From Basidioascus undulatus (taxonomy: Eukaryota), in assembly GCA_000826855.1 (NCBI GenBank), contig JTLS01000015.1:1-54533 (forward strand): a DNA stretch of 54,533 nt. Reading direction: 5' to 3'. Under the pieces are notes generated by a model. That model worked only from the letters and a program-made list of their open reading frames with translations. It was not told where the DNA came from and ran no database searches. A program made the translations under genes and the position numbers. This document shows positions 30,649 to 49,997 of this stretch, in pieces (the first letter of the stretch is position 1; every line of letters begins with the position of its first letter).

Positions 30649-32090
30649 TCATCGTCCCCTTGCGCTGCACGGCCTCCGCGTGGGCACAGCGATCTGCGGC
30701 GAGGGCCTCGGCGTCGCGGGGAGGCCTGCCGGGCGCTGCTGCTGCTGCTGCTGCTGCGGCCTGTACGGGTGCGATGACGGTGGGCCTGCGAAGAGCGGAG
30801 GCGGGCGGCGGATATTGGACGCCGCGGAGGAGGGTCGCGCGCGGGAGAGGAGTAGACGGACGCGGTCCCGACGGAGCGCATCTCGTCGAAGGTGGTCAGG
30901 ATCTCGGCGAAGCTGTCTGGGCGGAGGGCGGGGTCGATTGGGGAGAGGGAGAGGGAGGTGCAGGTGGCGGGGGAGAGGGAGAGGCGGTTGATCGGGGTGG
31001 GCGGAATGGAGGAGGCCGAGGCGGGGAGACCAAGGAACGGACAGAGGGGGAGACGAGGCCTGCTCGGGGTCCTGGAAGGGAACAATGCGCGATGGGTGTA
31101 GGCGTTGGCGTGGGAGAAACGAAGGAGGAGATCGGTACGCACCGTCTATGAAACTCGTCACGTCCCAGAACGCCCGCTCGCTTTCTGGGCCCCCAGGTAC
31201 TCTCAGAATACCTTCCGTCCCCGTCTTCTCCAATACGACAGAAGGTACGCGCGGTGTCCCCGACGCCTCAGCAGGGGTGGACATGATCTCGAACACGCTC
31301 CCGGCGTATTCGATGGGCGTCCGGACGTCCGGGCTCGACGGCAGACTGGGCCCGGGTAGGGCGACGCCGACCCTGGAGATGCTGCTGATGCTGCTTGCAC
31401 CGTGAGGAACGTTAGACGCTGGAGAGCTTCGAACTGCTCGCAGTGCATGGGAGGGGTTACGTTCGATCAGTTCAGCTTCTGGGGGATGAGAGGGGGAGAT
31501 GCGCACGATCGCGAACGTCAGCAACAGCAGGGCCAGCAGCGCCTTCATCACGAACCCGACGTTCTCCCAGCGCTTCCTCCACCCCAACCCACCCGCGTTC
31601 CTCCCCGCGCCAGCCAACCCAACAAGCACCAGTGCGCCGACCACTCTCGTCGCAGCACCGGCGATCTCGCGCGCGATGCAGAGCGCAAACACGATGCGGC
31701 GACGGTCGGTCGTGGTTGTGGTTGTGGTAGGGGCGAACCGCTGGCGCATGAGGAGGAGCTGAGCGAGGTCGAGGATGTTTGCGAGGCTTTGGAGGAGGCC
31801 GGCGGAGGCGGCGGAGAGCGCTGCGGCTGAGATGGAGGGGGGGGGGAGGAGGGAGAGGAGGGAGAGCGGGAGGAGGGCCACGGTCGGGAGGAGGGTCAGG
31901 AGGGGCGTCACCTGCGTGAGAAGGGGGTGTGAGTAGATTGTTTTGTGTGACGGATGGGGATTGTGAAGCAAATGGGGCGCACGATCAGGAAGAAGACCGT
32001 GAGGGGAATCGTCCCGTTGGCGGAGATGAGGAGCGTTGGGTCGCGCAAGACAGCGGGAGGAAGACATGGCCCGGGCGTCGTAGCCGTCAT
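30649..32090 (-). CDS. Uncharacterised multi-pass membrane protein with disordered Pro/Ser-rich tail
   Basis: MTATTPGPCLPP...TVFFLI, an intron, then several hydrophobic segments (VTPLLTLLPTVALLPLSLLSLL, IVFALCIAREIAGAATRVVGALVLVGL, FVMKALLALLLLTFAI). The frame and splicing of the 3' half are unresolved. Confidence 0.55.
30736..30757. repeat. (CTG/CAG)~7 microsatellite
   Basis: gctgctgctgctgctgctgc run in the tail region of the minus-strand membrane protein gene. Confidence 0.7.
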
Positions 32091-32785
32091 GAATCTCATC
32101 CGACGCTCGGAACCTAGTCATTAAGGAAGTGCAGGATCCAGACAAGCCGGCCCCGCATGAAGCGTCGGATTGAGCTGAGGAGGACTGTCACGCTAGAAGA
32201 CTTAAAACGCACAGAATACGGACCGATGGAGCGACAAAAGAGGGAACGAGCGTGATCGAGAGTGAGAGAACCGGGAGTTCGAAAGATGAGTGCGAGATCG
32301 ACGACGAGAGAGCGCTTGGAGTCGCGCTCGCAGTCGAGGACGACGAGAAGGAACAATATCCTGGATATTCGAGTGCCAGGTACGCTTCGAGACAAAAGGC
32401 GATGGAAACCAGAGCTTGAGGACGGCTGTTGCTAGGGAGGAGCGACGATCATCGCATCAGGGATGCCCATCAGGCACCGCCGCGCTGCATCGTGTTTGCA
32501 GTGCCAGCCGTACCACAAATGTTGAGTAAAAGCTCAAGTCAGTAGCAATTTATTGTCAGCTTCCTGTGTCAGTTGCGTGGGGGCATGCTCTACATGATAG
32601 CGAAGAATCTAGGGCAAGAGAGAGGGCACTCCGCGTTTCGGCCGGTGGCCAGTCAAACCACATTACGTAAGAATCTCCTACACAAGACTTCCTCCAGCGA
32701 GTTGCCTGCCAGGCTCCAAGAGGCTCGCCAGCCTCGTTCTCCCTTTCCGTTCGTCTCGTCAGCAGTATCCACAACGTCAGCCATC

Positions 32786-35051: not shown

Positions 35052-37369
35052 ATGTGTGTTTCGATCGACCGAGTCGAGGGTGTTACGGTGCTCACCCGGG
35101 GACATCGCAGGGACGGCTATTCGATCCTCGCCCTCCTCGTCTTCCTCCTCGTCGGTCCGTCATCTCAATCTGAACCCCACTGTTTCGAAGTTTAAATGTT
35201 CCAGACTGGTTTCTATGCAGCGTTCTTTGTGATCTGGCCCCTCCGCATCCCCGTCCCACTCCCACCGCTCCACCCGCGTCTGCCCCGGCGCATCCGCCTC
35301 GCCCTCGATTTGAACACCGCGCCCGTTTCCGGGGTGCTCCTCCTCCTCGTCACGCGCACGATCGGCGCGCATGAGCTCCGATCTGGTATAATTGGCGGTG
35401 GGGAGACGCATGCGAAGCCGTACGACGTGCTCGCGCTGTTCATCAGCTTGGTGCGTTCGCTCCCTTTTGGGCGACGATCCGGAGACGCTGGCTATGAGCT
35501 AAATAGAGGGGAATGGTAGGCGTATATCAGCATATCGTTGGATACTACCGGTGTATTGCGCTTTCTGGCCTTCTGGGTCGCCAGGCGCGGAGGTACGTCG
35601 GGAAGGAAGCTGTACCTTTATCTCTACTTGTTCTTCTTTTGCCTCGCCGCGTTCGTGGGCAACGTGAGTCTACCCCTTGTTCTTCTTTCCACTAGACCTT
35701 TTTGCACGCTTTTACTGACGTATTTCCTCTCTACTCGTAATTTTACAGGACCCCATCATTCTCTCCGGGTACGCCAACTTCCGCGCCGAACCTGAGGCAC
35801 ACGCTCAATTCGTCCACTCAACTTAGAACCGCCTTTCTAGCGTACTTCACGCGAGTGACGGGCATCACACCTCCTTCAGCGTGGATCTTTTCCCAGTTTG
35901 CAGCCGCCAATCTGGGTGCGCTTTCTCTTCCTACCCCACTCGTCCCCCCCGTCTTACCTATTCGCCTTCCGCCCAATAGCGAGCGCTATCCTACCGCCAA
36001 GCAACCCGACTAATCTCGGTACGCCTTTTCATTCCTTCACCAATGCATTGCGTCTTCTGATACCCTCCTCACGGGCAGTCCTCACGTCCACCTTCTCCCT
36101 CTCCTTCCTCACCTACGCGCTCTACCTCCTCATCCCGACCCTCCTGACCTCGCTCGTCGTCTACCCCACACTTCTTTTTGTCTTCACACTCCGCCGCCCA
36201 CCTGCCTCACCCATCTTCTCCGGCGCCGACGCCCACGCGCGTTACATTCCTCTCGCGCTCGAGCACCCGCCTGACGTCACTCCGCGCGCGGCTTTGCTCG
36301 ACCCGGTTGGCGCCATCTTCGGGAGCGTCCTACTCGCGTGCACTCTCATCGTGCTCGTCGTGTGCAGCGTCGTGGTCGGAGAGGACATGGACGTCTGCTG
36401 GGTGACCTTGCCAGCCGCGGGGATCATGCTGGTTCGGGATCTGTGGTGGGATTGGAAGGGGAGTGGGAAGGGAGGATCGGATACAGATGCGGCTGAAGAA
36501 GCCGAACAGCAACAGGCGGACGGGCACGACGTCGTCGAGGCGCGTGCACACGTCGGAGCTCCCGTCGAGCTCAACGCCCTCCCTCCAGCCAGCTGCTCCC
36601 CTTCCCGTATCTCCTCCGTCTCCGCGAAGTCCTCCCGGCAATCCTCTCCCCGCCGTATTCTGGCACCCTTCCTCCGCCTCCCCGCGCTCTTCCCCACAAC
36701 AGCCCACGTCCTCGCCTCCCTCCCCTATCCGCTTCTCCCCTTCGCATTCAGCCTGTTCATCCTCGTCTCCTCCCTCAACACACACGGATGGATCGGAATC
36801 TTCGCTTCCTGGGCTGGCAAAATCATCGGCGGGTCGGACGTCCGCGCCGTCTTCCTCACTGGCTTGTTCGGTGTCATGCTTTGCAACGTCCGTCCCACCT
36901 CTTCCCTTCGGTTTTCTCCTACCCCTTCCGCGCTCACACGGACACGCAAACCAGGGAATCACCAACATCGGCTGCACGCTCCTCCTGTCCCAGATACTCC
37001 TGCACCCATCCTTCCTCTCCCCCGCCTCTGGCCCGTCCAACGACTCTCAACGCATCACCTGCGGCGCCGCGTTCGCCCTCGCGTTCGCGTCCAACGTCGG
37101 CGCGTACAGCTTCACGTTCTCGGCGTCCCTCGCCGGGCTTCTGTGGCGCCGGATCCTCCGTCAGAAGGGGATCAGCGTGGGAAGGAGGGAATGGGTCGGC
37201 TGGAACGCGCCTGTTCTGGCGGTCAGTTTGGGGGTGGGCCTAGGTACGTTGAAAGTTATTTGAAGCTTCGTGGGCGTAGACATCGGGCACTGACGGGACG
37301 AGGGCGGTGCTGCGGGGACGCGCAGCGGTCGTATTGGCCGAGGTGCGGATCATGTTCCCTGCTGCATAA
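35052..37369 (+). CDS. ArsB/NhaD-superfamily permease (fungal arsenical-pump-like, Lsi2-related)
   Basis: Motifs KPYDVLALFISLAYISISLDTTG, GNDPIILSGTAFL, SNPTNL, TNIG and ASNVGAYSFTFSASLAGLLWRRIL, with many transmembrane segments and canonical introns. Confidence 0.88.
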
Positions 37370-37907
37370 TCAGCCTCGATGGCGCTGTTTTCATTTCCAC
37401 TCTGGTGTCTTCGGAATATATACATTCATCAACTTGTTTCATTTTGCTCGTCTTCTCGGAGCGAGGCGACGGGGAATCAAGGCGACGGAAACCCGTTGTC
37501 GACTTGACGCGGGATAGTGATCGTTGCTTAGAACGACAGCAGATATCCGTCTCAGGTGCTTGTAAGAGTGAAATCGGACCTTCGAGCATCAACGAGCATG
37601 AGATAGAAGCGCCTGTGTACGCGAACGCCGCGGGAAAGCGAGTCGAACGACAAAAATGGCAAGCTTTGAAAGAATAGGCGTACCGGACCCATTGGTCGAA
37701 CTACATGAATGTGAAAACTAAAACCAATTGAGAACCGTGAAGTCTCAGTCGATGGTAAGGTACGAAGGAGATCGACTGGCGCAGAGTCCCAGAGGACACG
37801 ACGCGCCCTCGACGCGTCCTCAGGTTGCTTTCCTTCCTCCTTCCGCGTTTCTCCTCTCGCGTTCGGTCGCTCCGCGCCAGCCTCTGACGGGCACCCATCA
37901 ACGCCCA

Positions 37908-40900
37908 ATGGCGCCCTTTACACCGCTCTCTTCGTTCAACATCCCGGTGGCGGCCTCGCTGCCGCAATGGTCGGCATGTCCGACGATGGACCTCCTCGCG
38001 CTACCCGCCGCGGAGGGCGCCAAGGTCGCGCTTTGGCGCATCGCAGGTACAAAGGTCTGGGAGGCGGAAGTTGAGGCAGCCGGAGAGGCAGGTGTCGCGG
38101 CTGGCGCTTGGAGAGCGGACGGTGAGTCTTGGGTATCTGAACTAGGTCGAATGTCCTTGGGGATTACATGTGGGAGTTGGCAAGCTCGGTAAGAAGGGGA
38201 ACGCTCTGGCATGGAACCGGTTTTACGTTGCTGTTACCGGGCACGCAGAATGATTACTTCCTCATAGAATGCTGATAGCTCTCCTTAAAGGCAATCTTCT
38301 CGCCCTGTCCCCTGCATCCTCCCGGCTCATCCACCTCGTCTCCGTCCACTCCGGCCAGACCGTGCAGTCCCTTCACCTCCCAGAAGGGCAGCATGCGCTA
38401 CGTCTTGCCTGGGCTGAGGTGCGTCTTCGCGTTCCACTCGTCTCAGGGCCAAAACATGGCTCAGATAGATACTACCTCGCAGGCAGACGGCGAGGAAGTC
38501 GGCGGTGTGGACTCGAGCGCTCAAGTGCTGGGCATGCTCCCGCTTCTACCGCCTTACAAGGACCAGTCGACCTCGTACGCGCCTTTGGTCCACCTATCTA
38601 ACTTTTGCTAATCCCACCTGCTTTGTAGAACGTCTCTCTTCACTTCCGCCCTCCCCGCCGCGGTCGCTCCTCGTGCCCGATCCCCACATCCATCCATGTC
38701 CGGCTTCCCGCGCATACCCCTGGCACCCACATCTGCCACCATCTCCTCATCTACAACCTTCCCACTCTCCGCCTCGGGTCAAGCGGTGCTGCTCGCCCTC
38801 ACACCGACGCACCTGCACATCTATCTGCACGGCACGCTCCTGCTGTCTTCCATCCCGCTTCCCTCACTCTCGCCATCTCCGCCCGTCATCTCCGCTTCGT
38901 CGGACCTCAAGTCCGTGTCCACACTGTCCCACAATGTTCATCTCGACATCCCCCCCAGCCTGTCCAAGTTTGCGCGCAACGCGAGCAGGCTCGCCAGTGT
39001 GCTCGAGTACGCACTGGAGGGTGTACGGCGGATGGAAGATGCATGGACGGGCGACGCGGGTGCGCGGAGGGAGAGCGACAGCTGGCTGGACAAGATGAGG
39101 GAGGAAGAGCGGATGGGTGCGTGGCGGTTCTGAACCACCCTGCGTCGGCGAGTCTCCTGACGCTAACGAAACGGGGAGGACAGCTACCGACCCGACGCCG
39201 CCTGACCTCGAGCTCACACGCCTACTGCTCACAGGCCGGGCTAGCGACACCCTCACCGAGTTCGTCTCGTCGAAGCTGACTGAGAGGGTGCGTCGCGCTT
39301 CTGCGTTGTTCCCGTCGCTCTCGCTGAGCAATGCTCTCCACTCGGTAGGCGCTCAGCAAGTGGACGTCCACCGTCTGTTCCGCCCTCCGTCTGATCCGCA
39401 CCACGACCCTCTCAAGCGTCTTCCCCGCTATCGAGCGGGTCATGGTGCTCATCGATGAGCTGCGAGCATTCGCGGAGACGTGCGTCTTCTCTCCGTCATC
39501 ATATTTGCGACGAGCCTGTAACCGAGGGTTTTTGATCGATGCGTACGATTTCCAGACCGATCCACTTTGACGCCTTCGCGCTTCAGCCGAGTGAGCTCGC
39601 TTCCTTGGCCTCCCTCGCGGCACGCGCCGCGCGCAGAGCGTGGGACCTCGGTCGTGCGGCCCGGGTCGAGACGGAGCGATTTGGGGAGTTTGGGAAGTGG
39701 TTGAAGTTCGGTACGCGGCTTAAGATTTCACTCGGTAGTCTCGATAATTTCAGCTGACGGTAATTGAGCCGCGCAGAGATCGACCGCATCGCCTCGCTTG
39801 AGACTCCTCCGGACGAACGCGAGCGCCTCAAGGCGACACACGACGTCCTTTCCTGCGCGACGTACCTCGAGACGGGGCTGGTCAACTCTCCGCTTGACGC
39901 GTACCTTCTTCCCCCGCCGTCTCCGCGCCCACTTCCTCCCTACACTCCTCCTACCGCCCAAAGTCTGGACGAGACGCTCGCTCGAACGCTGTCCGTCCTC
40001 CGCGGAACCGCGCCCCCGGAGGACCTCCCTCTTCCGAACAGACGCGTGAGCGGCACGGGCCGCGTGTCGACTGGACCGACGGTACCGCGCCGAAGCCTGA
40101 GGGAGGGCGGCCGGCCGAGCTTGGGTGGGGCGGGGGCGGGGCCGAAGGCTAGGGATGGGCTGGAGAGTGGGATGGAGAAGGCAACGCTGCAGGAACTTGT
40201 GGCGGAGCTGGCTAGGAGTGCGCGCGAGGTTGTCAAGCGCGCGGTGGAACGGGCTGGGGCGCGGGTGCAAGTGCGGGACAGGGAGACGTTGTGGTCGGAG
40301 GTGGGCGTGGTGAGGGAGAGGACGGTCGTGCAGGTTAGTTCTGATGTCGACAGTGAGGAGCCTCGTCTGTAGCGGGTACGCTGACCGAGACGGCGGAGCA
40401 GGGCGAGACGGCGTGGCAGTACCTCGCCTACACCTCTTCCGCGCCCCAAGACGACTCGCAACTTCGCTGTATGACATGGCCTTCTCAATCGGCCGCGCCG
40501 TTTGCAGCCGGATGTACACTGACTGCGTTTTCTAATCCCCGAAGTGCACCTCACTCGCTCTGCGCTGCCCTCCGCGCCTTCCAGTCCGCGCACAACGCTC
40601 ACGTTCCATGTCGACCCGTCGTACACCCTCCTCGACCACGACTTCTTCGACGACTCGACGCTCGTCCTTCTCCTTCGCTCATCCTCCGACCCTCCAGCGC
40701 ACATCCTCGCTGTAGTCCCGTATTCTCCCGAGACGCTGGAATGGTCATTCTCGGAAGTGCGTACATACTTTCCTGGCCGCCGCGCTTTGATTTTAACGCT
40801 TAAGCCGAGCCGCTGATGATTGCCGTGCCGTTCACAGGAAATGCCCTTGCCCGTCGAAAAGCAGCGCGAGCTGACAGGCGAGCCGGTCGCACTCGCGCTG

Positions 40901-41062
40901 AACGGGAGGAAAGGGCGGCGGATTGCCGCAGTGCTTGGCGGAGCGGGGAAAGCGGTGGAGGTGTGGGATCTTGATGAGGATGAAGATGAAGAGGAGGACG
41001 AAGAGGAGGAAGGAGAGGGAGAGGGAGAGGGCGGTGAGGGGGACGAGGAGATGAACGAGTAG
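37908..41062 (+). CDS. APC4: Anaphase-promoting complex subunit 4
   Basis: N-terminal ACPTMDLLAL...VALWR...VWE...AWRADGNLLAL (ANAPC4 WD40-like), then LTRLLLTG...LTEFVSSKLTER.LSKW, FPAIERVMVLIDELR, FGEFGKWLKFEI, LALNGRKGRR, and an acidic tail. Confidence 0.85.
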
Positions 41063-44000
41063 GCTGCTGAGCCTGGCACATTGACGATGCTGTGATGTGC
41101 ACCCAGCGCAGTGTGGGGTTTTCCTGATGTGCCCTCCTCAGGTGACCTGGCGCAACGTCCCCACGTTGTGAAAATGACTGGCTTGTAGCACGCAAAAACT
41201 GATGCAGCGTAATATCTGAACTGCACCTCCTTCATACGCACATGCAGTGAATAATAGTTCAGAAGGCTTCTGGCCTCCCTACGCATGTATCATAATTTTT
41301 CCAGCATGACTGTGAGCCTGTGGTGGTCTCAAGGTACGCAGCGGTCCTGATTCTCATCTGGTTGCCTCAGAAGCTCTGCGGAAACATCAACGTGCGTTTC
41401 CATTGACGAGGCTGCCTGAACTGATGTTTTGGCAGGCGGTCTGGCGTAAAGACGAAGACCAACACCCTTGCGAGGGAGTTTGAGAGAGCCTTTGTTGTTA
41501 TTTTTGTATGGTTTACCGTATGGTTTTTGGGCGTTGGGGGTCAGGCAAGGGAAAGTGGGGAACGTGAATCGCAGCTGCCCGTCGCGAGGGTGATTGGACA
41601 TCATTGCATCCGCCGTCCTTAGCTCGGGCTCGGACCTTGGTTGAACCTTGGTGCCAAAAGGGTTTTCTTGAACCAAACGCAAAGAAAGGACTGCTAGTGC
41701 AGACTTCGGAAAGCCATCCGTGACTCCGTCGCGCTGTGTGTTTGTGAACGCGACTGCATGCGTGGTCGGGTTAGGTCTTCGCGGTGTTATAATACCAGGA
41801 CCGCTTATGATAAAAGAGAAGAATTATGAAGAGGGAGGAGTGGGCTACCGTACGGCCGTCATTACTTTGCGCATCGGAGGTGAAAAGGGAGCGGCGCAAG
41901 TATCCTATGCCCTATGCAGTTCCGTGGGTTCAAAATGCGGCGGATCAGGTAGAGTCGCTAGTTCAAAACGTTTTGAGTTTCAAGTGAATCCTGTGGGTTT
42001 GTGATGGATTTGAAAGAGCTGGATAGGTCCCTACATGACGACTGCCGTGGCAGCGCTACAACGAATCACTTGCTGATCTTGCCCAATAAGTACACGGCCG
42101 GTACCCGTTCAGAAAGTTTGACGAATTAGGGGCTGGGCATGGAGAACATATATGGAAACAACTGAATGTTTTTTCTGAGTTTGTTCACAGGTGGAACGAC
42201 TTCGCAATGCCGCGAGCTTCGTCCAGTCGAACTGGCTGCAGGGCATTTCGGAAGCCCTCGCCTGGGTCATGTGCATGGTATACTCGAAAATGGAACATTA
42301 GCACATGATTCTATAGGACCTGCGGTTTACCGACAGTCCCTCGACCTGAGACCGGACTATGTATCATGCAACGTTCGGCTGTGCCCTTTCACCTGTCGCA
42401 TCGGCCTTTTTCATGCCTCTTTGTGAGCCGCAGGTCTGTTTACGGAATGGGTTTTTTTTTTATTCTTTGCTTGCCTCGCACCACCCTTCAGCTTGGACAA
42501 CTGGCCACAACGTTGCGGTATGGGTGGTTTGCAGCTTACAACTTCAAGCTCGCTTTACCTCTATTGGGTCATTGACCAGTATGTAACCCTGATAATAAAA
42601 GTCTATTCATTGGATATTGGGCGGGTTCAGAGGACGGGCCGCTCTACTGGCCGGCCCTGAACTCGACGTTGTGTGTGCTTCTCCGCTCCTCAACCTTCTC
42701 ATTGTCAAGGCTAGTTCTGCCCGGACAGGGGTCATGCATTGTAAGCCAAAATAAACACATGAAAAGTGTTGCAAGATGGCGTCTCCTGCTGTGGCAGCAA
42801 CAGGATGGATCATAGTTAACTAGCAAAAATAGTTGAATAGTTGAGGGACACCCGACTTGAACGGATAACCTTGCGATCTGGAGTCGCACGCGCTACCATT
42901 GCGCCAGCCCCCCGACGTTGTTCTATTAATCTTCCAATTTAGAGAATAAAGGAAGGTTTTGTCTAAGGGTCGTGAAATGAAATCTTATCTCTGGGGACAT
43001 GCATTGGCCCACAAAGTGGCTGTGTTGGTTCTGCGAAAAGCTTTAAAGCAGTGCTGCGGGTCCTTTCCAACTCAGTAACTGCAGAATGGCTAGCCTGCAT
43101 GTCGAGTACCACTGCGAACCCACAGTTGGTTGCGGAGTCTTTGTGCATTAGAGTAAGTTGCCCCGATGCATTTGGTCTATCGGTAGACGCAGAGATAAAA
43201 TCCCATACTCCCGAGGCTGGGGCAAAACCCTGTCATGCCACCTCACAACTCTTTTTCTCTCCTTGGGGGCCACCAGCGTCAACTTACATATCCAATAAGC
43301 AGACCAGGGGTGAAATGGTGATATAGAACTAGAGACATTTATGTAGGTCACACAAGGGCCTGCAAGAAGTGCGTCGAGGCAACCACCAGCATATTAGCCG
43401 GCAGCTTCCCAGACGAAACGGACCGCAGGTCTTCTGTCCGGACCCTTACCATTGTTTGGGTCTTCACTGGAACCTTTTCGGTTTGCTTCTAAACCAAAGC
43501 GGTTTATAGTAGTGGGTCCTGAAGAAAAGAAAAGGAGTTCATATATGCGGGAGGAGTCCAGGTAATTTCAATGAACCTGCTAGTATCGGATCGCTACAGA
43601 GTCGAATCAATCGATCCATTCCAGACACCAGAAGAGAGTGAATGTTCCCAGCATACGATAAATTAAGGGATGTTTGGATCTTACCTTTGCTCGGGATCAC
43701 CAAGAGGATGAGCATCCGGTGGACTAGGGAGTACGCCGGTTTTTCGGTATAGGGGAAATCAGGCCAAAGTTGAGAAGCCGGACGGGCAGGCGTAGATGGT
43801 TTATGTGCGTTCTCTTGGGGAAGGGAAAGATCACTACTTTTCTCGTGGAATGCCATAGTGATAAAGATCCTCACCTGCAGCAGAGAAGAGGAGCTTCGTA
43901 CCGCGAACGCTTCTGCCCTGAGCGGCGCGACAGCGCCCCCTCCGATTCTCGCGTTGTCGGTCCGTCCACCTTTCGCGGCACTCGCGGCCCTCCATAGTCG

Positions 44001-44933
44001 CGCTGATTAAGGTCCCAAGGCCCCAACAGCCATTTTCTTCTCACCTTCTGGCTGACAGGACTCGCGAGGCGCAGGGCAAGGGTGCTTCCGTCACGCCAAA
44101 CATCGCAGCAGCCGCGCTCGTCGTCATGGACTTGGCATACCGGCGCAGGCCGTACCAGGGTCGGGAATCAGAGGTTCCCTTCGTGTGAGGAAGTCTGTGG
44201 AGCAAGGCCATCGTCTTTAAGGCAAAAAGTGGGAGGTGACGTTCGAGGACAAGGCGAATGAGGGCGACGGCCGCTGAGCGCCCGCAGCGATGCGATACTT
44301 CTCTTCTTCTCTCCCCCCTTCGAGGAAGAAAATTGCTGAATCTGAATGAGCGTGTGGTTCCAGTCGACCCTTCAGCGAAGCCGACGTCGAGCGCATGATC
44401 GCCTATAGACAGCGCTATCCGACCGTTTTGCAGGCCATGGACCTGCTCGCACATGACGTTGGTTCCCCGCTTGTTCTGTCATCAGCAGGGATATCCCACT
44501 TTTGAAAGAGCCTTGCTAGTATCTACGCCACTCTTCCGACACCTACAAGACAAATGGGGCCGTGACAAAATCGAGATAGAGCGGCTCGTGCCCCAAAGCT
44601 CGCTGCGCGAACTTTGAGCAGCCGGTCTTCTATATTTCTAAACTGGTTTCCCCGGCGGCATTACCTGATACCGGAGGATAAATTAGAAGACCCCCGCACG
44701 CGTCCTCGAGCTCCAGGTCTCGGGGTGCAAAGAGGCAGCTTGCCGAAGATTCCAGCCGTCCCAGGTGCGCAACCGCTTACTCCGTCCACCTCACACTGTC
44801 AAATCCCTCAACTCCTTGGACTTTCCCATGATATCGCTTCAAATTGCACAGATAATACATGCCCGGAAAACTACATGTACACAGTCCCACTCCATCCTTG
44901 CGACGGCCCATCCCGGTAATGGTGACAGACTGC

Positions 44934-47900
44934 TCAAATGTCGTACCCTGCAAGGAGAGTTGAGTCAGCAGCCTGTGCATATAATTATGAATAAAGACGC
45001 ACTGAAGGTGAGGTTTTGTTTGCTGTTTTGTCAGAACAGTGCAGTCAGCAGGCAGCAGAGGATCAATCCACATTCGGCGGAAACTAACTCTGTGAGGTCT
45101 TCAAAGGCACGGTCCACTTGAGCGATCTCGCCCATTGCGTCCCGGAGCTTGTTTTCCCTGATGTTGTAGAGCATGTGCGTGATGGCCAGGACGAGGGCGA
45201 TTAAGAGGCAGATCAAGGATGCCATGAAGCCATCCTTATATCCAGGGGCCTATTATGCCATAAAAGCGGACGGAAAGTCAGCTTGACAGTCGCCGTAATG
45301 AACACACTGGGCGAGATCGGACCTGGTCCTTCTTGAAGAACAGCGGGCCCCTGGATTGTGCCGAGTCAATTTACCATGATATGCTGGAGGCAGGGATGAT
45401 AACTTACGCGATGTTTCCCAAGCAGTACCCCACGTACAGCCATCCTGCTGCGAATGTTTTCTTGGAATATCCGCCGACATTGGAGATGGAGAAGCCTGGG
45501 GCAACAGGTTATTGGATGCCTCGGTGGTGGATGGAGAAGTTCGATTACCCATGCACTGAGCATATCCGGCTGAAAAAGGAGCACAAATCCAAGTCTGAAA
45601 GATGGCTTTCAGGGTTATGCTGACGCAGAAGTCCAGAAACATAGCACTCACGGCGAAGAGCAATGCTCCTTTCATCGATACTCTGTCCAAGGACTAGTAA
45701 TAGGGTCGTAAGTTACAAGCGGAATGATTGGAGGAAAAAGAAAAGACCGACCCAGAGCATGGCACATCCGATGATGGGAAGGACGCAGAAGAAGCATACC
45801 TGGCGTGATGCTGGCATTCAGCTATGGGACAAAATAAAAATGGCGCGAAAACGACACACCACCGCTGTACGCAAGTTCCTGTACTTCGACGAGAGCCAGC
45901 CGCTCACAAAGACTAGAGAAGAAGCAATCATTCAGCACGCTTGCTGTGTACATGTGATCAGAAAAAAGAAACGACGCGTACTGCCGACGAACGAGAAGAC
46001 GCCGGCTTCAAGCAAATAAATCGGTGAGGATTCGTTTGCAGCTGCCTAGCTACCGGACTTACATGGAACAGTCTGAAGAATAAGCGGGTTGGCGAGCGTC
46101 AGCCCCCACATGTAATCTCGGTCGCCAGCGCATCATCCACATACCAACAATAGAGTCTCATAAGAGTCAAATCCCTGGGTGTACTCGTCAGCGTAAGGCG
46201 TCGATTTGGATATAGGGAGCAGGCCTACCATCGACTGAATGATGATTGTACTGAACGTGGAGACAAGGCCGTTTGTTGTGCTGATGCAGAAAGCCATGCA
46301 GAAGACAAGCCACATGCTGCGCTCATGGGACCGCTCAGTACGCCTGTGTGCCACTGGTTCTCCCCGACGACACAAAATCTTACGCACCGAACATCCGTCA
46401 AGGCCTCTCGCACTTGATAAATTTGGAATTGCTTGACTTCGATACTGGATTGATTTTCGCGCAGGCGCTCCAGGGCCTGACAGAATGCGAAATCAGCACG
46501 ATAGGAAAGCGACAGTCTTGCGAAAGTCGTCGCTCGTTAACACACCACGTAGCGTTCGCGCTCTGTCAGGAACTTGGCGGTGAGGGGGCTGTCCGGAAGA
46601 CTGCAGAGTGATTGGTTAACATCGTGCTCTGTAGCCTTCTTAGGTGGAAGCAGCCTACAGAATCCAAACGGCCACGCCCCACAGCAACGTCACAGCACCC
46701 GTATGAATCCTAGTCTGTCAGTGCGATGCATTGTACGCCGAATGTGAAAAGTAGGCAGGACTCATCAGAAGTAGAACAGAATGGGCCAGGGTCCAGCCTT
46801 CCCTGGGGCCACTTGCGGAGCGCGCAGGATGCCGTACGCTGCAGCGGCAAAGAGACGAGATCAGTCATGTCCCGTTATGAAAAGATTAAAGTATCGGCCA
46901 CATACAGATGAAGGACGCCACAATAACCGCTGCTCAACGTCCGTCAGCACCTAGTGATTCAAGAGGCGACCTTTCCGTGCGTACAGCCTCCAGTGAACGA
47001 GTACCACTGTCGAAAAAAACCTTCAGTTGGTGTTGGTTTCCCACACTGACAATAAGACCCACCGTCGCAGCACGGAAGGCTTGTTCACTTTTGCGGTAGT
47101 ATTGCCCAACGAACAGCCTGCCGAAAGGGGTTGGCGCAGGGTTCTGGCCGTTGCCTGCATGACACTCACATGAAAGCACTGTTGGACATGCTCAGCACAA
47201 GCTATCATGCGACAGTTATCCCTATGATAACTCACGGAGAAATTCCGGCTTCGAGAAATCCAAGGAAGAACCTCTGGAGTGGACTGCTTGTAAGCTGCCG
47301 ATGGGTTGAGAGCCGCCGAAGGCTTGCCCACCTGAGCCATGAGGCCTTCGTAGTTCTTGCAGGCGGGCGTAATTATGAAGACAATTCCCCAAAGTAGGAC
47401 GTAAGTTGCACAGCATTTGCCGATCTGGAGAAACCGATCTCCATTTCAGCCGCAGATGTGAGCCGGCAATGGGGAGCAGTCGTATACCGGCAATTTCTGA
47501 GCGATCCAGGCCAACGGCAGCGATCCAGCCAGGTACCCAACACTTTCGCACGTGCGTTATGTTAGGGGTGGTCTCCAAGGCTGATAAGAGAGATGCGGAC
47601 TAGAAAATCATGGCTGCGTTGGAGTAGCGTCCCGTATCGAGCGTGCCACCCACGACGCGGTAGAGTCCGAGGTCTTTTCAAGATGCTTGTTCAGCAACCA
47701 ACGGAAACCGATTCAAGGAGAGTACTATACCTTGAACTATACCAAATATAGCGGCGAGACTGAGCCCAACCTTGTCTACGTACTGCGCAGCCGCCAGAAA
47801 ATCAGCCATGCTTTTTGTTCAGTCTCTGGGGTATCTACTCATGCTCACCTGCAAGCCTTGGGTTATGCACATGATAGGCTGCATCCTCCAATCAATCTTC

Positions 47901-48076
47901 TTTAGCAGTGCCGCCTCCTCCTCAGGGGTGATGGGCTGCCCCCGATGAGCTTCGAGGAATGCGAGCGCTGGGTCCGCCTTCCCATGGTGCTCGTGGTGCG
48001 GAAGCGTCCCACCCTTCTCCGCCTCTTCTATATTATAGATCTCTCCACCCTTTTCGGTAGTTGGGCTGAGTGACAT
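44934..48076 (-). CDS. MFS anion:cation symporter, allantoate permease (Dal5)-like, ~26 introns including one AT-AC intron
   Basis: LLKKIDWRMQP, YVDK, RFFLGFLEAGISP, YRKSEQAFRAATWYS, WPILFYFWGAVTLLWG, LPDSPLTAKFLTERER, SNVGGYSKK, GYCLGNIAGP, RENKLRD, AFEDLTDKQNLTFRYDI*. Confidence 0.92.
46701..46765 (-). other. Non-canonical AT-AC intron (U2-like signals)
   Basis: Minus strand reads TTC TG|ATGAGT...CTGAC...CATAC|G GGT GCT. Removing these 65 nt restores TGG (Trp) and the family spacing WxxxFxxxG. Confidence 0.72.
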
Positions 48077-49997
48077 AGTGGACGTGATGATGGTGTGGTT
48101 ACGCTCAGGCATGACAGCTCCTCTATAAGAGGAAGTAAGACGAGTTGTCCGGTCTGCCGGCTAAAGCGTCAACCGGGCGGCAACACAAACATTGACCGTT
48201 CCAAGAGAATGGGAAGATCATCAGGTCCGTCAAAATGCCAGTAGGTACAAAGTGAGCAGGACGAGAACCACTGTAAAGCGAAGTCAGGAGGACAACGCGC
48301 CATGTGCGTTGTGCTCGTGATCAGGGACGAAACTCTGCTGCTGTCCGCTCTTGGCACACCCAGTGAAGGCGTGGAATGTGCAGCACAGCTACAGCAACCC
48401 GGCAGCAATTAGCAGTGTTCACATCATCTGCATACACAGGCGTTCATCAGACAGCTGGCCACCAGCTGGCTCTTGACACGCGAGCCAGTGATCGCCGGCA
48501 AGTGGCTCCCACCCGCGTGACGACTCAAAAACTGATACGGGCACTCGAATCTATGTTGGATCCAAGGGAAAATGGCAGACACTTGAATGGACAGTGAAAA
48601 AAATCGCATAAAATGGCTTGCATTGCGCTTCCAGGCAGCAGAATTTCGCACACGTAAGATCACCCCATCCTCAGATTCTGTTCTCCCAACATAGGATATA
48701 ACAAAAAGCTACGCTAGAGAAACCCATCCTCAGTGTATCTTGGGGCAAGATCTGCGAAAGCACAGGACAGAGTCAGCTCGTGGGTACCCTGAACCATGGA
48801 CCTACAAGTCGTGAGCCTGCCCAGCATCCCGCAAATCACCCATCAAATCCTACGCATGCGGATACATACACGGTAGGCTGAGTGACCTGCTCAACCAAGC
48901 AGATCTGTTTCCAGAGATACTGGGATGGGTGAGACGACGCACTTTGAATCCCGGCACTAAGGATGAAATCCTGATGTTGGTAGGAGTGTGCCCCTATCAA
49001 GAGTGCAAGTCAGAAATACACAGCATCAAATTAAGTATCCAATATGCGCTGCAAAGTTGGGGAGGGAAATGCAAGAGGGAGCAGAGCAACAGGTGGTCGT
49101 GGTCGTGGGGAAAGACGACCACCCGTCGCGCGCGCTGTAAGGTGCCGTGATGCCTCCACCCAACTCTTCGTCTGAATTTCGCGTTCGTGCCCAAGGACTG
49201 CATGGGCACTTCAATTATTTGCTTCGATCCCTTACGATAAAGACTCCCAAGACATATATACGAACTTTCTGAATTTCCTGTGAGTGAGACCCGGCCTCTT
49301 TGAGGGCTAGAAGAATCTTGTATTACGTGTCAAGATGATGGCTCGAACGCGCAACTGCATGACCTCTGTGCAGTGTCTTGGCACACCGGTTAATAATTCT
49401 CTTCCAGATGGCCCCCGTAGCTCCCATCTGCATCTGCGTGCCAAGTGAGACACATGCATCCGCTCCAAATGGCTCCCAATGTGTGTTCATTGGGAAGACA
49501 GATGTCCTTGCCAGGTGGAAGCCACATGCGTACTTTTAGCTGGGTGCCAGTCGAAGCGTGAGCGGCTGTGTACTCGTCCACCGAAGCGTGGCAACCCGAT
49601 CAGGTACGGGCGGAGATGCGGACGACGATGCTGTCAGACAACTGCACCCGACTCGCATCGTGGGGACCTGATCATAGCCATGTGGGTTCAAGACTGAGGT
49701 ATACATGCAGTGGGTGAAGAAAAGAAAAGAGTCAGGCAGGAAAAATAGGAAAAAAGCGAAGTGTAAGGAGAACCAAAGACAGCCTCAGCGCGAGGTCACG
49801 ATGGACAGAAGAAAGCGCACCGGTAGAAGAGTCTGATGCAAACTGGCAGGGTGAATGATGCAAGGCGGCAACAACGAGGAAGCAAAAAAGGGGGCGGGGA
49901 ATGGAGAAATGCAAGAAACGCGATGCTAAGAAACCAAAACACGGTACGGAACTCAAGATGCCCGGAAGAGAGATGGAAACAAGACATGAGAATGAAA

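Follow-up and report, generated by a model that had tools for sequence, protein, structure and literature searches.

A probable U2-type AT-AC intron in a Dal5-like transporter gene of Basidioascus undulatus

Results

A stretch of 54,533 nucleotides (nt) of Basidioascus undulatus DNA (contig JTLS01000015.1 of assembly GCA_000826855.1, hereafter the window) carries on its minus strand a predicted transporter gene of 27 exons, and the eleventh of its 26 introns begins with AT and ends with AC. We regard intron 11, with a probability of about 0.85, as a genuine and constitutively removed U2-type AT-AC intron (“AT-AC type II”). Between the start of exon 11 and the end of exon 12 there are 27 pairs of a GT, GC or AT donor with an AG or AC acceptor that keep the frame and are free of stops, only two of them being GT-AG, and the AT-AC pair was the best of the 27 on each test: the score against a profile of homologous proteins, the donor matrix and the contig depth in the sequencing run X3. 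A first-pass annotation of this DNA had proposed at 46701..46765 an AT-AC intron with U2-type signals, to be removed for an intact transporter; each element that it described was located on the minus strand where it had placed it, and motifs, profile and X3 depth all support the core of its reading, beside which it had raised the possibility that the intron limits expression of the transporter.

Without splicing, exon 11, which ends with TTC TAC TTC TG (last base 46766), continues directly into a TGA codon, as the annotation had read it, while excision of the intron joins TG to the G of exon 12 in a tryptophan codon followed by Gly-Ala-Val-Thr. Because homology to the family runs on both sides in different frames, an excision is needed at this point. 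The remaining 25 introns are GT-AG introns of 52-73 nt, intron 11 being the sole exception in its termini, and the spliced frame stays open over 531 codons; the earlier statements that a length of 65 nt is typical and that the other junctions and exons carry no lesion are borne out by these figures. The intron density of the gene is extreme, with 26 introns of 52-73 nt in a coding sequence (CDS) of 1.6 kb, or approximately one per 61 coding nt, and several of its donors are weak (GTCCGC, GTCCGA, GTATAG, GTAATC), the downstream ones being confirmed as spliced in X3.

Word-index protein searches with the peptides of exon 1 and exon 25 gave no matches. A phmmer search with exon 25 returned only five short fragments, and a profile built from these fragments then reached the family, retrieving 222 proteins; the 120 listed are fungal major facilitator superfamily (MFS) proteins with PF07690, and several of them are annotated as allantoate permeases. 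All 83 of the retrieved proteins that are 440-600 amino acids (aa) long could be aligned with the spliced model over the full length, which validates the 27-exon structure including its exons of 9 and 10 nt; the best match among the 83 is P0007, with 40.5% identity over 506 aa (E 1e-133). On this basis the product is predicted to be an allantoate-permease (Dal5)/ACS-family MFS transporter, the family names being those of database annotation. A FastTree phylogeny places the model, with a support of 0.976, in one clade with P0006, P0007, P0008 and P0088, of which three are from Meredithblackwellia and one is from Phenoliferia; both genera belong to the Kriegeriaceae (Microbotryomycetes, Basidiomycota).

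We scored the products of the 27 splice pairs against a profile of the 83 homologues from which the model itself was excluded. Excision from AT to AC gave the highest score, 599.9 bits, followed by GTTCTA..GAC (a GT..AC pair, 46777/46689) with 593.4, ATGAGT..TAG with 592.2 and GTTCTA..TAG, the best true GT-AG pair, with 588.9 bits. The spacing between a conserved tryptophan and a conserved glycine equals that of the AT-AC product in 82 of the 83 homologues, P0040 alone being longer, and among the 83 the tryptophan formed at the junction occurs only in P0006, P0007, P0008 and P0088, the members of the model's own clade. The earlier claims that excision restores the family spacing and that an intact Dal5-like transporter depends on it thus hold against the homologues (599.9 versus 588.9 bits for the best GT-AG alternative). 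The two alternatives which the annotation had itself put forward, a TAG acceptor adding three residues and a GTTCTA donor, fared worse, with lower profile scores and no fit to the X3 depth.

The splice signals of the intron are, apart from its two ends, those of the gene. Donors were scored with a matrix of the gene's own 25 GT-AG donors from which positions +1 and +2 were omitted, and in its context ATGAGT reached 3.69 bits, ranking third of 26, in agreement with its earlier description as the common GTGAGT with G1 changed to A. The CTGAC that had been proposed as branch point at 46721-46717 is present, and its distance of 17 nt from the intron end is typical: in the other introns having a motif of the CTRAY type, the motif nearest the 3' end lies at 13-28 nt, the exceptions being a second copy at 8 nt in intron 25 and a copy at 45 nt in intron 18. 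In PMC1557818, U2-type (type II) AT-AC introns are recognised by a donor of the major type at all positions except +1, which is what we find in intron 11; its branch site is likewise of the major type and at the usual distance. Coordinates of the gene and of the elements around the intron are collected in Table 1.

Table 1. Features of the predicted transporter gene and of its intron 11 (positions in the window).
Feature	Position	Strand	Remarks
Predicted Dal5/ACS-family MFS transporter gene, coding part	48112..44934	minus	27 exons, 26 introns, CDS of 1596 nt, 531 aa; exons assembled by coordinates
Exon 7 (micro-exon)	47170..47178	minus	9 nt (A-F-M); needed for family spacing; placed only by the full-length alignment, no X3 cover
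Exon 11	46766..46838	minus	73 nt; ends FYF + TG, with TG opening the Trp codon at the junction
Alternative donor GTTCTA, rejected	46772..46777	minus	-4.62 on the donor matrix, lower than each of the 25 real donors
Intron 11	46701..46765	minus	65 nt, AT..AC termini, phase 2; starts ATGAGT, ends CATAC
5' splice site ATGAGT	46760..46765	minus	equals GTGAGT, common in the gene, except for A at +1
Branch-site-like CTGAC	46717..46721	minus	branch A 17 nt from last intron base
In-frame TAG, bypassed	46710..46712	minus	9 nt before AC, 8 nt after branch A; its use would add I-H-T
3' terminal AC	46701..46702	minus	context CATAC|G
Exon 12	46659..46700	minus	42 nt; first base G is third base of Trp, then GAVT
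Exon 17 (micro-exon)	46063..46072	minus	10 nt; an X3 contig with a 139-nt skip carries exactly these 10 letters between its sides

Transcript evidence came from run X3. Its contigs lack introns 14-26 exactly as the gene model has them, thus the gene is transcribed and is spliced downstream of intron 11. With left-justified cuts allowed for, the model predicted to the base all 11 simple joints among the 15 listed of the 22 X3 joints over 7 kb, and the X3 contig with a depth of 7.66 reproduces seven depth bins exactly. For intron 11 itself we tested 13 hypotheses on X3 depth, namely retention and 12 splice pairs. A single depth, 3.293-3.307, accounts for both bins flanking the intron, 46510-46743 and 46744-46977, only if 46765..46701 is excised; the bins then hold 98 and 97 exonic nt. 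With the same depth, 32 nt of exon 14 are expected beyond the cover of the first contig, and the following bin comes out at an integer, 44 nt. The X3 data in this way give indirect support for a precise excision of intron 11 in RNA. X3 cover ends at about 47085, with exons 1-7 upstream of it uncovered. At the transporter locus X3 consists of intron-less, transcript-like contigs, and its label, “DNA?”, is probably wrong.

The genomic letters were compared with X1 (depth 15.9) and X2 (depth 50.3), DNA runs from two studies. Each run has one contig across 43000-50000 with no other letters over the gene, and the terminal bases of intron 11 are identical in the contigs of both. Because the X1 and X2 contigs agree, an assembly or sequencing error at the intron ends is unlikely, although the window sequence may itself derive from one of them. 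At 46765 and 46701, where the annotation had suggested a check of DNA reads, the contigs of both runs carry the AT-AC ends, with no GT or AG. The sole listed differences (44403-44444) stem from a second, repeat-derived X1 contig. A repeated element of 111 nt lies at 44369-44479, approximately 450 nt downstream of the stop codon; the X2 contig has a second, inverted copy of identical sequence, and another X1 contig has one that shows 16 differences.

DNA of relatives was obtained from one metagenome scan, which gave six loci. Three of them (L003-L005) are intron-poor and have no interruption through helix 6. Another, L002, closely resembles protein P0088 of Phenoliferia and has a 57-nt GTGAGC..CAG intron (at its positions 1692-1748) in the same Trp codon, encoding the same F-W-G across this GT-AG intron. 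The annotation had suggested aligning orthologues to look for a GT-AG or AT-AC intron at the same phase-2 position; the GT-AG intron of L002 shares the codon but is in phase 1 (T|GT...AG|GG), one base upstream of the phase-2 intron 11 (TG|AT...AC|G). Compared by eye, and with L002 lacking a full gene model, most other intron positions differ between L002 and the transporter gene, and the shared position was therefore rejected as a proof of homology. Given 26 introns in 531 codons, one coincidence in the same codon is not improbable. L002 is thus taken to support the spliced product, while it cannot polarise the change of the terminal bases. That intron 11 is the product of a one-base intron slide is conceivable, and we consider it unlikely.

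Elsewhere in the window, a transcribed neighbour at 48663-49085, just upstream of the transporter gene, has two competing X3 joints, 48751 to 48943 (skipping 191) and 48884 to 48941 (skipping 56), each bounded by GT..AG on the minus strand, which suggests alternative splicing or exon skipping. A tRNA gene lies at 42842-42913 on the minus strand (56.2 bits). Pfam searches with five peptides of the window found no families. The long open reading frames 39940-41286, 35898-37517 and 30649-32145 (translation table 11, 448-539 aa) had no Pfam match, and 39940-41286 also no usable Atlas match; they probably arose by chance in G+C-rich DNA or belong to spliced genes.

Discussion

Several observations weigh against a U2-type AT-AC intron or limit what supports it. 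The joint 46700|46766 is not among the 15 of 22 X3 joints listed, and the X3 support is arithmetic on binned depths that assumes a contig of single depth over exons 8-14; X3 is moreover from the same sample as X2, and its transcript-like nature is known from its spliced contigs alone. The profile margins, 6.5-11 bits, are good and not overwhelming, and the closest homologue is approximately 40% identical, so that the comparison was made without a true orthologue. The phylum is read from one gene tree, the scan for U11, U12, U4atac and U6atac RNAs was limited to the window, and the intron of L002, being shifted by one base, is no proof of a GT-AG ancestor.

The alternatives differ in which ends of the intron are used, if any. 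A canonical GT-AG intron would join the GTTCTA donor (46777) to the TAG acceptor (46710) and shorten helix 6 by one residue (L-I-H-T-G). Just two true GT-AG pairs, this one included, preserve an open frame, and three of the gene's 25 other introns use a TAG acceptor; the donor of the pair, however, scores -4.62 bits, under all 25 real donors, and its TAG lies merely 8 nt from the branch A. Its product loses 11 bits and the tryptophan common to the four closest relatives, is one residue shorter than 82 of the 83 homologues, and would require X3 bin depths of 3.04-3.06 and 3.71-3.74 at once, which makes this pair highly improbable in our view. The GT..AC pair 46777/46689 was likewise tried and rejected, failing the X3 depth and scoring lower. 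If the AT donor were instead joined to the upstream TAG, the outcome would be a 56-nt AT-AG intron and a helix 6 extended by I-H-T, either in the predominant product or in an isoform of some abundance. Such a product is in frame, stop-free and merely 7.7 bits below the AT-AC form, and a rare isoform of this kind would drop out of contigs. It inserts three residues where 82 of the 83 homologues have none, it places 107 versus 97 nt in the two X3 bins and so demands two different depths, and A at +1 with a 3' G is the combination that blocked the second step in the yeast and human tests described in PMC1557818. We consider use of the upstream TAG very unlikely.

A null allele or young pseudogene, in which a mutated GT-AG intron is retained and transcripts stop at TGA, would agree with the in-frame TGA that the unspliced message meets immediately, with the lack of any run recorded as RNA and with the joint 46766|46700 missing from the X3 joints listed. 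Against this, two independent changes yielding exactly the compatible A..C pair would be an unlikely accident, the gene shows no other damage, with 25 canonical introns, both micro-exons and a frame of 531 codons in place, X3 shows transcription and splicing downstream of the intron, and a retained intron would call for two incompatible depths, 2.28-2.30 and 2.68-2.70; the odds of a null allele therefore appear to us very small. Finally, removal by the minor spliceosome was considered. The branch box of U12-type introns has a TCCTTAAC-like consensus and lies 10-15 nt from the 3' end; the last 42 nt of intron 11 hold no TCCTTAAC-like box and have CTGAC instead, as the gene's other introns do. 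AT-AC termini are typical of a U12-type subclass (PMC7072748, PMC1557818), yet the U12-type donor /ATATCCTT, as quoted in PMC5029451, is absent from intron 11, whose ATGAGTCC agrees with it at 2 of 8 positions, those of AT only. An Rfam scan found no minor small nuclear RNAs (snRNAs) in the window, its sole match there being a tRNA; the scan covered the window and not the genome. The gene also groups with Basidiomycota, in which, according to PMC10639083, no convincing minor introns or snRNAs have been found. With only the terminal dinucleotides in common with U12-type AT-AC introns, and neither a ATATCCTT donor nor a U12 branch box, membership of intron 11 in that class is extremely improbable.

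The U2-type AT-AC reading is favoured by this lack of minor-spliceosome motifs together with the basidiomycete relatives of the gene. From its motifs and from this affinity (PMC10639083) we infer that intron 11 is removed by the major spliceosome, the lineage probably lacking the minor machinery. In the proposed course of events, U1 and U6 would recognise CTG|ATGAGT by the bases at -1 and at +2 to +6, where it agrees with the consensus of the gene, and U2 would pair with the CTGAC branch site. The A at +1 would be tolerated in the first step, while the second step would demand compatible bases at the two ends of the intron, either a G-G or an A-C pair. Owing to this requirement, the spliceosome may pass over the TAG that lies 8 nt from the branch A and take the AC that follows the branch at a distance of 17 nt, and the resulting TG+G tryptophan joint would restore transmembrane helix 6. 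The A-C pairing logic, as applied to intron 11, is our inference from its sequence.

Known systems provide close parallels. AT-AC type II introns, such as those of human SCN4A/SCN5A and TAF2 (PMC1557818), share with intron 11 the AT..AC ends, a major-type donor that deviates only at +1, an ordinary branch site and a location within the coding region that makes removal obligatory; SpliceRack contained 24 such natural introns among 610,067 (PMC1557818). Intron 11 differs from them in being fungal and very short (65 nt), in having ATGAGT in place of the strong metazoan /ATAAGT (PMC5029451) and in that its U2 dependence is read from sequence. In yeast and human U2-type introns, a change of G1 to A was rescued by a change of the last G to C, with lower efficiency (PMC1557818; Parker and Siliciano 1993 via PMC5029451). 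These engineered double mutants have the same terminal pair and follow the same logic of A-C for G-G in the second step, but they are less efficiently spliced laboratory constructs, whereas intron 11 belongs to a natural gene.

Within the Dikarya, AT-AC splicing is likewise on record in fungi without a minor spliceosome. No convincing minor introns are reported for Ascomycota and Basidiomycota in PMC10639083. AT-AC splicing is documented in S. cerevisiae, a species without a minor spliceosome, for the nested RPL30 intron (PMC5029451), AT-AC introns have been hypothesised in fungal xylanase genes (PMC1557818) and, although AT-AC is rare in fungal annotations (PMC7072748), it makes up approximately 0.03% in RNA-seq-guided gene models of A. 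niger, P. chrysosporium and T. lanuginosus (PMC4084796). In RPL30, AT-AC splicing yields a side product of 1-2% from a donor unlike the U2 consensus (PMC5029451); intron 11, in contrast, has a near-consensus donor and its excision is the sole route to the protein.

Since U2-type AT-AC introns have already been described in animals and in fungal models (approximately 0.03% of introns, PMC4084796), intron 11 is a well-documented specimen and not a new principle. The main practical value of the finding is correct annotation: gene finders limited to GT-AG and GC-AG introns would truncate or mis-splice the transporter, and the micro-exons of 9 and 10 nt would probably be missed by them too. If the L002 intron and intron 11 were homologous, the splice register and the pair of terminal bases would have changed together during evolution in a natural gene, and such a slide, if real, would allow a rare insight into the origin and persistence of non-canonical major-spliceosome introns. 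For splicing biology, intron 11 would offer a clean natural example of A-C for G-G in a major-type intron of a very intron-dense fungus, in which a competing AG 9 nt upstream is passed over.

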